NCBI GenBank assembly: GCA_045803545.1
Contig: JBJMOW010000005.1
Location: 1,184,001 to 1,248,000, forward strand
Reading direction: 5' to 3'
Source: Gemmatimonadaceae bacterium
GTDB lineage: Bacteria > Gemmatimonadota > Gemmatimonadetes > Gemmatimonadales > Gemmatimonadaceae
DNA length: 64,000 nucleotides
The translations under genes and the position numbers were made by a program. Below are positions 4,812-8,245 of this stretch, in pieces (positions within the stretch are counted from its first letter, which is position 1; each line of letters opens with the position of its first letter). The notes beneath the pieces were generated by a model. It ran no database searches, was not told the origin of the DNA, and saw nothing but the letters and a program-made list of their open reading frames with translations.

Positions 4812-5423
4812 ATGAATTCGGCCTTCAGACCGAGCGCTTTGGACCAACATCGGGACGCGCTGCTGCGCTGTCGCCGCTGTCGGCTGCATTCCGACGTCAC
4901 CCCGGTCGCCTCACTCGCGCGCAATCCACGAGCGATGCTCGTTGGGCAGGCGCCGGGAAAAGTTGAGGCGGAGGGCGGTGTCCCATTCTCAGGTCGCGCG
5001 GGGCGGACGCTTTTTGGTTGGCTCTCACGCGCCGGGTTGGACGAGAACGATGCTCGCGAGCAGATCTACATCTCGGCGGTCACGAGGTGCTTTCCGGGGC
5101 CTCATCCGAGCGGCCGCGGCGACCGAGTGCCGTCCAAAGTGGAGCAAGCGCATTGCGCTGATTGGCTCGAAGCGGAGCTTCGGATCATTCGGCCCAAGCT
5201 GCTGATTCCGGTGGGCAGACTGGCAATTGAGCGGTTTTTGCCCGCACTCCCGCTTGACCAGCTCATCGGCACCAAACGCAGCGTTGTCCACGCCGGCGGG
5301 CAGTCAACCGTGATTCCGCTGCCGCACCCGTCGGGCGCGAGTAGCTGGTTTTACCAGAACGACAACCAAACCCTGCTTGACCGAGCCATCGAGCTTATCG
5401 CTGTCGAGCTTGGCCGTCTCTGA
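4812..5423 (+). CDS. Uracil-DNA glycosylase family protein (Fe-S, family 4-like)
   Basis: CxxC near the N-terminus, GQAPG, PFSGRAG, RCFP and PLPHPSG motifs. Confidence 0.85.
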   Translation: MNSAFRPSALDQHRDALLRCRRCRLHSDVTPVASLARNPRAMLVGQAPGKVEAEGGVPFSGRAGRTLFGWLSRAGLDENDAREQIYISAVTRCFPGPHPSGRGDRVPSKVEQAHCADWLEAELRIIRPKLLIPVGRLAIERFLPALPLDQLIGTKRSVVHAGGQSTVIPLPHPSGASSWFYQNDNQTLLDRAIELIAVELGRL

Positions 5424-5477
5424 AAAGCGACGCTAAACTTGTGGAGCGCCGCGTAGCGGCTATCACGGGAGGCAACC

Positions 5478-5849
5478 CTGACGTCAACAGCTCCGTCGAC
5501 GCGAGCCGTCAACATTGGGCCGCGCGAACGACTCAAGAGACTCAGCGCGGGAGTGGTTGGCTTCGCTCTCGGCATCGTTCTGGCCGCGGTGCTGATCGCC
5601 ATGCGCGCGCCACCGCTGTGGCGACTGTTGCTCTTCTTCCCCTTCCTGTTCGGCGCCCTCGGAGTGTTCCAATCTCGCGACAAGACGTGAGTAAGGCTTG
5701 CATCGCGCGGTCAGCGCGATCTCGACACCGGGCCCCAAAGCGTCGACAACAGCGTGGAGCTGGCGCAGCTGCGCCGGCAGGCACGCGCGGTCTACGCGAA
5801 ATCGTTCGTCACAGCGATCATTCTCACGGCGCTTTCCTTAGCGTTATAA
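5478..5849 (+). CDS. Small membrane protein with in-frame TGA (codon 71); candidate selenoprotein
   Basis: GGAGG (5468-5472) precedes a CTG start at 5478. Translation: MTSTAPSTRAVNIGPRERLKRLSAGVVGFALGIVLAAVLIAMRAPPLWRLLLFFPFLFGALGVFQSRDKT*VRLASRGQRDLDTGPQSVDNSVELAQLRRQARAVYAKSFVTAIILTALSLAL-TAA. Protein-like frame continues past TGA 5688-5690, with a SECIS-like hairpin just downstream. Confidence 0.75.
5691..5720 (+). promoter_or_regulatory. Putative bacterial SECIS element
   Basis: 11-nt spacer after TGA, then ATCGCGC (5702-5708), loop GGTCA (5709-5713) and GCGCGAT (5714-5720): a perfect 7-bp stem with a G-initiated loop. Confidence 0.7.
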
Positions 5850-6805
5850 CGCTAAGCGCTGCGCTGCTGTCGGTCGCGGCTCCGTGCGCGTCGGCGCAAA
5901 TGACGGCGGCGCGACTTGATGCGATCGTCGAAGCACAGCGCGACAGCGGCTTTTCAGGCGTGGTGCTGGTGGCGAGGAATGGCACCATCATCATGGAGAA
6001 GGCGTACTCACCGCGAAACGGGGCTCCCCTCCGCACGACGTCGCAATTCAATATCGCGTCCATCACCAAGAGCTTTACCGCCGCGGCGGTCCTGCGGCTC
6101 CGCTCCACACACCGACTGTCCTTCAGTGATCCGATCTCGCGCTTTTTTCCATACACCTCACCTGGCAAGCGCGATATCACGATCTATCATTTGCTCACCC
6201 ACACGTCGGGTCTCGCCGGACATTCGGCAGGTACGGGAATCGTGCGCCGCGATGGGGCCGTCACCGCAATCCTCGCGCAAAGACTCGAATACCCACCGGG
6301 CACGCACTATCAGTATCAGGATGACAATTACGAGCTGCTCGGCGCGGTTGTGGAGATAACTTCGGGCCTCAAGTGGGAAGACTACATCGATCGCGAGCTG
6401 CTGACTCCTGCGCGCATGAACTCAACGACCTTCCAGGGCGGCGACTGGGGACACAAAGGCGCCAATGGCATGCGGAGCACCGCGCGCGATCTCTATCGAT
6501 GGCTCACAGCCATTCACGATGGCAAACTCTTCGGCCGCACCGAAAGCCAGGAGCTCGAGTCTCCGCTGATGCACGTGCGCAGCGAGCCGCCGTACGAGAT
6601 TCATTACGGTTACGGCAATCGGATCTACGTGCGCAACGGCCGGGTCGCGGAAGTGATGCACTCGGGAAGCGGCGACGCCCGCAACACCTCGATCGCACGA
6701 ATGCTGGCCGACGGAACTATCGTCGTCGTTCTCTCCAACTCTGGCCAGCACAGGGGAACGACCTGGGCGTCGTATCTAGGGACGCGACTCGCGGCGCGCA
6801 AATAG
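5846..6805 (+). CDS. Serine hydrolase, beta-lactamase (class C-like) family
   Basis: SxxK (ASITKS), LLTHTSG and PPGTHYQY motifs; signal-peptide-like ...AAPCASA-Q. Start unresolved (ATA 5846, ATG 5900 or GTG 5687). The ORF-track N-terminus from 5441 looks like off-frame translation of the small upstream gene. Confidence 0.8.
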   Translation: MTLSAALLSVAAPCASAQMTAARLDAIVEAQRDSGFSGVVLVARNGTIIMEKAYSPRNGAPLRTTSQFNIASITKSFTAAAVLRLRSTHRLSFSDPISRFFPYTSPGKRDITIYHLLTHTSGLAGHSAGTGIVRRDGAVTAILAQRLEYPPGTHYQYQDDNYELLGAVVEITSGLKWEDYIDRELLTPARMNSTTFQGGDWGHKGANGMRSTARDLYRWLTAIHDGKLFGRTESQELESPLMHVRSEPPYEIHYGYGNRIYVRNGRVAEVMHSGSGDARNTSIARMLADGTIVVVLSNSGQHRGTTWASYLGTRLAARK

Positions 6806-6811
6806 CCGCGC

Positions 6812-8245
6812 TCAAACTCTCCGCGTTTTCCAGCGACCCTTTCTGAAGAACCACGCGCTCACTATCGCGTGTACCGAGTAAGTCAGTAGCATCGCGAAGA
6901 ACACCCCGCGCGGTCCGCGATGCAACGGCAGCGCAAGCAAGGCAGCAAGCGGGATGCAGAACGCCCAAAAAACGAACAGGTTGATCCACGTCGGAGTCCA
7001 GGTATCACCGGCGCCGTTGAACGCACTGTTCAGGACCATTCCGTATGCGTACAGCGGGAATCCGAACGCAACTGTTCTCAGGCCGGCGACGGCGTAACCG
7101 CCAATTGCCGGATCGGACGTGAACAGAGATGCAATCGGTCCGGCGAGAACAACGAAGATGAGTCCGATTGAGCTCAGGAATACCACGTTATACCTGCCCG
7201 CCATCCACACCGCGCGCTCAGCCCGATCCGGTTTTTTCGCGCCGAGCGCCTGCCCCACCATCGTCGCGGCAGCGTTGCTGACGCCCCACGAAGGAAGTAG
7301 TGCGAACATAATGATTCGCACCGCGATGGTATAGCCGGCCAACGCAGTACTGCCAAAGACTGAGATTATTCGTACGAGCCCGATCCAGCTCGCGCTGCCG
7401 ATCAGAATCTGAAACGTTCCCGATCCCGACAAACGAATCATCTGCCACATCAAGGTCGGGTCGAGCTTGAAATGATGTCGGCGTACCTGCACACGGCCAC
7501 CGGGGCGGAAGAGGCGGGTGAGCGCGTATATGGCACCAGTTCCTCGTCCAATGGTCGTGGCCACTGCGGCACCGACGACGCCTAGTCGTGGAAACGGACC
7601 GACGCCGAGGATCAGCATCGGGCCGAGGAAGATATTGATGGTGTTTGCCAGCCACAGCACGCGCATCGCAATCACCGCATCACCGGCGCCGCGGAACACC
7701 GCGTTCACCAGAAACAACAGCAGCACGACGATGTTTCCGCCGAGCATGATGCGAGTGAAGAGAACGTTGGCGAGCACGCCGCCCGACCCGCCCATCGCCC
7801 GCAGCAGCACCGGCGCTGTCAGTGCGCCGAGTACTCCGAGGGTCACTGCAATACCAGCAGCAAGCAAAATCGCCTGTGCGGCTGCGTGCGAGGCGCCTTC
7901 GGAATCCTTCTCGCCAATGCGTCGCGCCACGGTTGCGGTGGCACCGATGCCGAGGCCCATCGCCATGGTGTAGATGAGGACCATCATCGACTCGGTGATG
8001 CCGACCGTTGCGACTGCATCAGCGCCGAGTCGCGATACGAAGAAGACGTCGACCACAGCGAAGACGCTCTCCAGAACCGTCTCGAGCACCATCGGCACCG
8101 CAAGCAGGAAGATCGCTCGGCCAATGGGACCACTGGTGTAGTCGTGGTGCGCGCCGCGCAGCGCTTCCCTGATGTTCTCCCAGTACCCTGGCGCAGGCTC
8201 GGGCGTCGTCGTCGCTGGGACGGCGAACTCGGACGTGTCACCCAT
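6812..8245 (-). CDS. MATE family efflux transporter
   Basis: About 12 TM segments; LAVPMVLE, FRGAGD and FNGAGDT repeats. Start chosen at MGDTSEF. Confidence 0.9.
   Translation of the reverse strand: MGDTSEFAVPATTTPEPAPGYWENIREALRGAHHDYTSGPIGRAIFLLAVPMVLETVLESVFAVVDVFFVSRLGADAVATVGITESMMVLIYTMAMGLGIGATATVARRIGEKDSEGASHAAAQAILLAAGIAVTLGVLGALTAPVLLRAMGGSGGVLANVLFTRIMLGGNIVVLLLFLVNAVFRGAGDAVIAMRVLWLANTINIFLGPMLILGVGPFPRLGVVGAAVATTIGRGTGAIYALTRLFRPGGRVQVRRHHFKLDPTLMWQMIRLSGSGTFQILIGSASWIGLVRIISVFGSTALAGYTIAVRIIMFALLPSWGVSNAAATMVGQALGAKKPDRAERAVWMAGRYNVVFLSSIGLIFVVLAGPIASLFTSDPAIGGYAVAGLRTVAFGFPLYAYGMVLNSAFNGAGDTWTPTWINLFVFWAFCIPLAALLALPLHRGPRGVFFAMLLTYSVHAIVSAWFFRKGRWKTRRV

Follow-up and report, generated by a model that had tools for sequence, protein, structure and literature searches.

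Does the in-frame TGA of a small reading frame in a Gemmatimonadaceae genome end a protein, or does it encode selenocysteine (Sec)? The question is raised by positions 5478-5849 of the window, by which we mean the whole 64,000-nt stretch analysed here (positions 1,184,001 to 1,248,000 of contig JBJMOW010000005.1, assembly GCA_045803545.1), where an earlier note, made from the letters alone, had proposed a small membrane selenoprotein. The elements it described are all in the sequence: a 123-codon frame that is hidden from the list of open reading frames (ORFs), which for this region gives just a 45-aa fragment (5553-5690) and the overlapping 454-aa ORF 5441-6805 that masks it; a GGAGG, within GGGAGG, as putative ribosome-binding site ahead of a candidate CTG start codon; a single TGA, in the context QSRDKT-U-VRLASRG, followed in frame by the closing TAA; and, starting 11 nt after the TGA, a perfect hairpin, ATCGCGC/GCGCGAT with the loop GGUCA. 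The TGA is codon 71 and the sole Cys/Sec position, there being no Cys anywhere in the product. The comparisons set out below make it very probable that 5478-5849 is a genuine selenoprotein gene and that it represents a new family among bacterial selenoproteins.

The read-through protein was used as the query in a six-frame whole-genome search (E<=0.01) of 41 related genomes. Twenty-one were matched, and 18 of these have a full-length locus (query positions 1-3 to 110-114, 37-83 % identity) with exactly one TGA each, the 18 loci coming from three families within one order. The remaining three matches are short and weak, cover the hydrophobic part only and lie within unrelated long ORFs. A profile of the 18 Sec forms was then run on a sample of 401 genomes of the phylum and on 168 genomes of a second phylum, which was entered via a Cys-form locus in a record bearing the title Candidatus Latescibacterota. 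Members of the family were found in 30 of the 401 genomes (25 with one TGA, four full-length without a stop and one partial) and in 29 of the 168 (eight with one TGA, 20 with no stop and one partial with a TAA). The TGA falls in the same alignment column in both phyla, in 43 distinct TGA-bearing sequences, and the first 18 Sec forms are free of gaps in the core. An independent soil-metagenome contig from another study (run X4, 1451 nt) covers 5300-6100 and differs from the window at 18 of 801 positions, none of them inside the TGA, the hairpin or the CTG-ACG of the start region. The fear voiced in the earlier note, that the TGA might be unique to this assembly, is thus removed by its presence in 18/41, 25/401 and 8/168 genomes and in the independent contig. 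A pseudogene, or a TGA due to a sequencing or assembly error, might be suspected from the fact that the window copy has also lost the ATG of its relatives, but such an explanation is hardly conceivable: 43 distinct TGA sequences in two phyla share one column, the independent contig agrees with the window in TGA, hairpin and CTG-ACG, the frame has neither frameshifts nor additional stops, and purifying selection is visible.

Homology extends to both sides of the TGA in full-length alignments from related genomes and from both phyla, as the proposal had predicted. Asn12, Arg21, Gly62, Gln65, Thr70, Leu74, Gly78, Arg80, Asp83, Thr117 and Ala118 are invariant in the 18 Sec forms, and downstream of the TGA residues are kept while their codons are free, with four codons used at each of Thr+46 (18/18), Leu+45 (17/18) and Ala+42 (17/18). 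These patterns indicate that selection at the protein level continues past the TGA. Were the TGA an ordinary stop, the product would be a two-helix protein of about 70 residues, and the conservation beyond it would need another source, for example an N-terminal extension of the downstream hydrolase read from GTG 5687. Of 70 database entries, 69 do stop at the TGA as called, the shortened product resembles the two-helix YgaP-like transmembrane (TM) domain in outline, and 5441-6805 is open throughout, the hydrolase having no canonical start before its signal-peptide-like segment. However, the frame of the small gene is conserved with synonymous change for 52 codons past the TGA in all homologues, and, of 132 distant homologues, 128 have Cys at the site in an ORF without interruption. 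Relatives also have no conserved start codon past the TGA, the next codon being GTA, GTG, GTC, ATC or ATT. GTG 5687 is a by-product of ACG-TGA, and relatives show TTG, CTG or ATG in its place according to the Thr codon. The beta-lactamase homology of the hydrolase starts only at about 5918. Nine loci of the genus were inspected, and in seven of them an ATG and a signal peptide belonging to the hydrolase itself follow the stop of the small gene. Because an NTG over ACN-TGA is automatic and because of these seven loci, GTG 5687, which the earlier note had allowed might be the real hydrolase start, is not credible as such, and simple termination at the TGA is highly improbable.

The nature of the residue at the TGA is indicated by more distant relatives. 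A word-based search of 5.8 billion proteins returned 70 matches, those with names all being 'hypothetical' or 'uncharacterized membrane' proteins, some from Gemmatimonadaceae metagenome-assembled genomes (MAGs). Sixty-nine of them, with lengths of 66-70 residues, reach no further than the first 52-54 % of the query, and the four of these that were inspected have the C-terminus ...DKT. The one full-length match (P0001) has W at the Sec column, probably a TGA read as Trp by gene calling. A full hidden Markov model (HMM) search of 1.84 billion representative proteins gave 2264 matches at E<=1e-3, 855 at E<=1e-10 and 23 at E<=1e-30, and almost all of the best 150 of the 2264 are 105-215 residues long and matched over their full length. 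From 132 of these 150 representatives and 16 Sec forms an alignment of 148 rows was made, leaving out the partial sequences P0109, P0113, P0168, P0191, P0193 and P0200, entries P0209-P0220, and the near-duplicate Sec forms L015 and L016. Among these representatives, drawn from the best 150 of 2264, the Sec column is Cys in 128/132, Gly in two, Asp in one and Trp in one (P0111). The alignment of Cys with the TGA at codon 71 that the earlier note had looked for is therefore present, and its statement that relatives carry Cys at the site or are annotated as ending at ...KT was correct. The Cys codon is TGC or TGT in 15 distinct Cys-form loci; a pattern search with Cys in the pattern gave six Cys-form loci only. 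Asn12 is invariant (148/148) and Arg21 nearly so (146/148), and Arg80 and Asp83, invariant in the Sec forms, are found in 89/132 and 99/132 representatives, respectively. An extra Cys up to three residues before Asn12 is present in about 82 of the 132 representatives and in 7/16 Sec forms. The window protein is a member of a large and uncharacterised family, whose clusters at 50 % identity number more than 2,000 and in which the Sec site is otherwise a near-invariant Cys. Two Cys forms, P0190 and P0220, one of them from an Omnitrophica MAG, have an N-terminal extension of about 60 residues before the N-I-G motif, with a zinc-ribbon-like CPxC...C..C pattern, and no Pfam family matches this extension.

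The source genome (3.7 Mb in six contigs, 93 % complete, 60 % GC) is equipped to make and insert Sec. All of selA, selB, selC and selD, without which the earlier proposal could not have stood, are present with scores above their cut-offs: SelA (477.6 bits) and SelD (379 bits) exceed the curated cut-offs, SelB scores 356 bits (cut-off 242) and the tRNA-Sec gene selC 64.9 bits (gathering score 47). The selD gene (G000 contig C3:40932-42042, outside the window) adjoins the tRNA-Sec gene and has its own in-frame TGA, in a CAGUASK motif, followed after 13 nt by the hairpin GGUC-CGGGU-GACC, with a GGGU-containing loop. In the phylum sample, SelA was found in 320 of the 401 genomes, a tally that includes the unpublished genomes G186 and G089, on which no other result given here depends. 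It is present in 25/25 TGA-form genomes, and the TGA form occurs in none of the 81 genomes without a SelA match (Fisher p = 0.003; this and the p-values below overstate the significance, the genomes and sequences being related). With 8/8 TGA-form genomes of the second phylum, SelA is present in 33/33 TGA-form genomes tested, the tests covering those of the 401- and 168-genome samples. Nine Cys-form genomes were checked and SelA was found in seven (not in G202 and G433). No formate dehydrogenase alpha subunit over the TIGR01553 cut-off was found in the source genome, and the Sec trait is therefore maintained by other selenoproteins. As a separate observation, Sec use looks very common in Gemmatimonadota, a phylum hardly mentioned in the selenoprotein papers found.

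The TGA could instead be recoded without Sec, through leakage of a near-cognate tRNA (Trp or Cys) or through regulated termination yielding a short and a long isoform, with the hairpin acting only as a read-through stimulator. There is a W at the column in two database entries (P0001 and P0111), though these are probably TGA = Trp gene calls, and a short isoform is likely too, Sec insertion being usually inefficient. Recoding of this kind is nevertheless very unlikely, as the column is Cys and not Trp in 128/132 homologues, TGA forms go with SelA as described above, and the hairpin has the spacing and G-rich (GGU) loop of a bacterial Sec insertion sequence (SECIS), with a similar GGGU loop after the Sec codon of selD. 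TGA is, moreover, the commonest normal stop of the source genome, ending 760 of the 1621 ATG-initiated ORFs of at least 300 aa, and the genome therefore does not generally read TGA as sense.

Evidence for Sec also comes from the hairpin itself, whose conservation in TGA-bearing homologues had been named as a point that would support the proposal and is visible both in frozen synonymous sites and in compensatory pairs. Across the 18 genes the codons at +5 to +9 are almost fixed (TCG 12/12, CGC 16/16, GGT 17/18, CAG 12/12 and CGC 18/18), whereas conserved Arg columns outside the hairpin use three to six codons. The codon entropy of the four 4- or 6-fold degenerate hairpin columns is 0, 0, 0.31 and 0 bits, compared with a minimum of 0.41 and a mean of 1.46 bits in 39 comparable columns elsewhere (Mann-Whitney p = 6e-4). 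GGT, the codon that supplies the loop, is the rarest Gly codon elsewhere in the 18 genes (15/153). Among 43 distinct Sec-form sequences of the two phyla, the Gly of the loop is encoded by GGT in 36, GGG in five, GGA in one and GGC in none, while in 15 distinct Cys forms it is GGC in ten, GGT in three and GGA in one (Fisher p = 2e-5 for GGT and 6e-8 for GGC). When the structure of the window hairpin is imposed on the 43 Sec forms, 80.4 % of stem cells pair and four of the seven stem pairs include changes on both sides (17 cells); pair 27-33 is CG in 33, UA in four and UG in one, and pair 22-38 is UA in 16 and GC in five. The covariation score of 0.142 (0.085 +/- 0.010 in shuffles) was reached by none of 500 shuffles. 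The structure slid by +/-2 also pairs fairly well, because the stem is a CG repeat. Hairpins of the second phylum stand at the same distance in other letters (GUUGCGUG-GGA-CACGCAAU, CGCCUC-GGG-GAGGCG and GCGCGU-GGUGC-ACGCGC). The hairpin is above chance because it is conserved across genomes, and the pattern of change points to selection at the RNA level.

In layout the hairpin is like a bacterial SECIS, lying inside the coding sequence with an apical loop that begins GGU, and that of the source-genome selD is similar. E. coli fdhF has an 11-nt spacing and a GGUC loop; the window stem differs from the fdhF element in being a short, perfect, GC-rich helix of 7 bp that lacks the bulged U of fdhF. 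The general layout is the same in the BSepDB example of a canonical SECIS. No Rfam family was found over 5600-5850 at E<=10, two chance rows aside.

Sec and Cys have replaced one another within the family. In a quick maximum-likelihood tree of 87 sequences, in which most forks are unresolved, the Cys form L098 (59 % identical to the window protein) is nested in the genus clade of 14 Sec forms (support 95) and the Cys form L103, with P0104, is nested in a pair of Sec forms (support 97 and 100). From these two supported nestings it follows that Sec and Cys were exchanged more than once, and repeated exchange is usual in selenoprotein families. In L098 the stem is kept, with GGT changed to GGC and TCG to GCG. 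Two TGC forms, L067 (genome G291) and L098 (G431), still have a SECIS-like hairpin, which suggests that Cys took the place of Sec in them recently and that the hairpin is a fossil SECIS. We also observed that L099, from a MAG titled Gemmatimonas phototrophica (G432), has a protein nearly identical to that of L100, from a MAG titled Candidatus Latescibacterota (G434); both genomes are classified in one phylum, different from the phylum of the window, and one of the record titles is probably wrong.

Several points count against a selenoprotein at this locus, in addition to the relatedness that inflates the p-values and the poor resolution of the tree. Folded as a single sequence, the hairpin region (71 nt, -24.3 kcal/mol) is not significant, with z = -1.27 and 21 of 200 shuffles as stable. 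A similar hairpin is retained in the Cys forms L067, L098-L101 and L113, although not in L062, L068, L069, L103, L111, L112, L114 and L115, and in part it follows from the conserved A-(S/A)-R-G-x-R motif being written in GC-rich codons. Its persistence in Cys forms is to be expected either from A-A-R-G-x-R in CGC/GCG codons or from a recent Sec-to-Cys change. Since several Cys forms keep it, the stem alone is not diagnostic, and the minimum free energy of the hairpin region fails to separate Sec from Cys forms; the two are distinguished only by the GGU loop, the frozen codons and the covariation, and not by the hairpin itself. The sole contig from an RNA library (a metatranscriptome) spans 5743-5974 only and gives no evidence of read-through. 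Finally, the window copy lacks a canonical start codon, having CTG/ACG where relatives have ATG.

The start region bears on the last of these points. Upstream of CTG 5478 there is an in-frame TAG at 5454-5456, and no ATG, GTG or TTG lies in frame between it and the invariant Asn codon at 5511. An ATG or GTG stands 9-10 codons before the Asn codon in 13 of 18 related loci, and the ATG of relatives is one codon after the proposed CTG, where the window has ACG. The closest relative, L011, has TTG-ATG where the window copy has CTG-ACG, and database homologues that are 87-92 % identical (e.g. P0002) start with M. As the independent X4 contig does not differ from the window at 5478-5483, CTG-ACG is not an assembly slip. 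It implies either a near-cognate start or low expression in the window lineage, and translation of the window copy probably begins at a non-canonical codon.

We next consider whether the family is already known. Neither the window protein nor any of 27 Cys homologues reached the cut-off of a Pfam or NCBIfam family, and at E<=1 the window protein gave chance-level CrcB, MtrF and FUSC_2 rows only. Table 1 of a May 2026 review lists 119 prokaryotic selenoprotein families with domain models (PMC13188914); it includes no YgaP-like, DUF2892 or comparable small three-helix family, and no Pfam, NCBIfam or TIGR model listed there matches the window protein or the 27 Cys homologues, families defined by cd or PTHR models lying outside the scan. 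The absence of a match to any classical selenoprotein family, stated in the earlier note, holds against the known family models. BSepDB comprises 111 families, and its main text, as distinct from the supplementary family lists, is silent on membrane proteins and on Gemmatimonadota (PMC13326102). Nothing about this family came up in literature searches whose coverage stopped short of the supplementary tables of BSepDB and deep-Sep, where an unnamed entry may exist. Recent papers on selenoprotein discovery look for orthologues that contain a TGA, for Cys homologues whose flanks are conserved and for a SECIS-like structure (PMC12013277), and all three are found for the window gene.

The only recurring weak match was to the YgaP-like TM domain PF11127 (DUF2892), in 5/18 Sec forms and 3/27 Cys forms, the best scoring 16.9 bits (E 0.007) against the Pfam cut-off of 25.3; the window protein has no match. 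YgaP is a membrane-bound rhodanese. True DUF2892 proteins are present in 27/41 genomes of the order, with none in the source genome at E<=1e-6. Comparison of the family with 18 true DUF2892 proteins of the same order using hhalign gave a probability of 52.7 % (E 1.4e-4, 62 columns), pairing NIG..ER..R with NMG..DR..R and Sec/Cys71 with the invariant DUF2892 Cys. The two appear to share an N-x-G-x-x-(D/E)-R-x-x-R motif, two TM helices and a Cys directly after the second. However, the family motif is K-T-(C/U)-V-x-L-A-A-R-G where DUF2892 has C-P-x-Y, and DUF2892 is missing the extension of about 50 residues that holds a short helix, a beta-hairpin and helix 3. A remote relationship is plausible but unproven, and no selenoprotein of DUF2892 is listed in Table 1 of PMC13188914.

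Some membrane selenoproteins are on that list, namely the MerT-like (PF02411) and YeeE/YedE (PF04143) families, the SO_0444 Cu/Zn efflux transporter family (NF033936) and the SaoP permease (PMC13188914, Table 1). As proposed for the window protein, Sec replaces a functional Cys of a membrane protein in these, but the window protein differs in its K-T-U-V Sec motif and in having no second Cys. No match to their models was obtained at E<=1 (NCBIfam) or E<=10 (Pfam). MerT is a three-helix protein of about 116 residues with cytoplasmic-face cysteines after helix 2. The 18 Sec forms gave no PF02411 row in hmmscan at E<=10, a search in which the HMMER filters drop most weak matches.

The protein predicted by AlphaFold2 from the 148-row alignment has a mean pLDDT (per-residue confidence) of 96.4 and a pTM (predicted template modelling score) of 0.87. 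Between helices 2 and 3 (see the feature table) there is a short helix, residues 72-76, right after Sec71, and a beta-hairpin (79-81/86-88); conserved residues of helix 3 are Q101, A102, T117 and A118. Because the N-terminus (RERLKR) is strongly basic and the segment after helix 2 is also basic, both are suggested to be cytoplasmic, and Sec71, Asn12, Arg21, Gln65, Thr70, Arg80 and Asp83 would then gather at the inner face of the membrane. Translation would thus start near 5478 and proceed through two TM helices to the UGA, where the hairpin, its GGU-containing apical loop 11 nt downstream, would recruit SelB with Sec-tRNA(Sec), and Sec would be inserted in place of termination, a decoding that we infer from the comparative evidence. 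The short helix, the beta-hairpin and the third, long helix would follow before the end at TAA 5847. This arrangement would place the Sec/Cys site just after the second TM helix, presumably at the cytoplasmic membrane face, beside the six conserved residues named above.

What the protein does can be approached by analogy. Sec/Cys pairs mark catalytic redox residues, and residue 71 is on this ground taken as the active site. Our preferred reading is that the protein is anchored in the membrane and presents a redox-active selenol or thiol on its inner surface. A peroxide or disulfide-type oxidoreductase, acting for example on lipid hydroperoxides, is our tentative first suggestion; a sulfane-sulfur or selenium relay like the TM domain of the rhodanese-linked YgaP is possible but rather unlikely, soft-metal hand-over as in MerT is doubtful, and some other function takes up the remaining probability. 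In glutathione peroxidase (GPx) the Sec has a Gln/Asn environment, of which Asn12, Gln65 and Thr70 are reminiscent. The likeness to GPx and peroxiredoxin selenoproteins lies in a single Sec/Cys near amide and hydroxyl residues, and the variably placed second Cys of some homologues could act as a resolving Cys; unlike them, the window protein is membrane-embedded and has no similarity to them in sequence or fold, so that the resemblance is an idea only. Several results offer such functional proposals no help. Foldseek found nothing against the PDB at E<=1e-3, a wide VIA-align search gave generic helical matches only (best Z 6.7), no neighbourhood is conserved outside the genus, and the window protein is without the second Cys near Asn12 that many homologues carry. 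A sequence-profile search of the PDB gave nothing below E 0.13, and a search of the ESM Atlas with the Cys homologue P0079 returned unannotated clusters only.

Features of the small gene and its surroundings, in window coordinates
Feature	Position	Strand	Basis
Shine-Dalgarno-like GGGAGG	5467..5472	+	Read in sequence; 5 nt before CTG 5478, 8 nt before ACG 5481; putative function
Probable non-canonical start, CTG 5478-5480 then ACG 5481-5483	5478..5483	+	ATG in relatives at the place of ACG
(Seleno)protein coding sequence, 122 residues, including stop TAA 5847-5849	5478..5849	+	Translation, full-length homologues, AlphaFold2
N-terminal motif N-I-G-P-R-E-R-L-K-R-L	5511..5543	+	Alignments; basic, so probably cytoplasmic (inference from the positive-inside rule)
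Predicted helix 1, residues 15-41, transmembrane	5520..5600	+	AlphaFold2 and hydrophobic sequence
Predicted helix 2, residues 46-68, transmembrane, conserved F-Q motif (Gln65) at its end	5613..5681	+	AlphaFold2, alignment
In-frame TGA, taken as selenocysteine 71	5688..5690	+	One column across genomes; Cys in distant homologues
SECIS-like hairpin	5702..5720	+	Stem ATCGCGC 5702-5708/GCGCGAT 5714-5720, loop GGUCA 5709-5713; inside codons A-S-R-G-Q-R-D
Predicted long helix 3, residues 92-122, amphipathic, then hydrophobic C-terminal membrane segment	5751..5843	+	AlphaFold2
Beta-lactamase-family serine hydrolase, separate from the selenoprotein	5900..6805	+	PF00144, E 6.3e-51

The N-terminus of the downstream hydrolase is signal-peptide-like (LSVITLSAALLSVAAPCASAQ, then M) and shares its DNA with the 3' end of the small gene, which is read in a different frame. 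In the hydrolase frame there is no ATG, GTG or TTG from 5690 to ATG 5900, and the latter is TTG in L011 and CTG in contigs of runs X4 and X17. Synteny with the hydrolase is found within the genus only, and among 49 ORFs flanking 21 loci of other families there is no recurring Pfam theme, many of these ORFs possibly being spurious in GC-rich DNA. Upstream, the gene at 4812-5423 (+) encodes a member of the uracil-DNA glycosylase superfamily (PF03167, E 1.4e-27); its frame closes with an ordinary TGA, 54 nt ahead of the small gene. A promoter and terminator scan of 5200-6950 found nothing near the small gene and no pattern between the three genes, and co-transcription is therefore possible.

If the reading of the TGA as Sec is right, a membrane-embedded family would be added to the catalogue of bacterial selenoproteins, one that is common in soil Gemmatimonadota, and a systematic annotation error, the ending of 69 of 70 database entries at the TGA, would be corrected. 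The 43 natural SECIS variants, with the Cys forms as controls, would make a data set for the rules of SelB recognition outside the Proteobacteria. Because Sec/Cys pairs point to catalytic redox cysteines, a family of more than 2,000 clusters would gain a testable hypothesis with a named active-site residue, and the conserved Cys of the DUF2892/YgaP membrane domain, so far unexplained, would become easier to approach. A bolder extension, which we consider unlikely, is that Sec marks the family Cys, and maybe that of DUF2892/YgaP as well, as the catalytic redox residue of integral-membrane (seleno)thiol enzymes that act at the inner leaflet and form a new class. If that were true, the family might be the equivalent of GPx4 in bacteria, embedded in the membrane and reducing lipid hydroperoxides, or else a membrane station of a sulfur/selenium relay.

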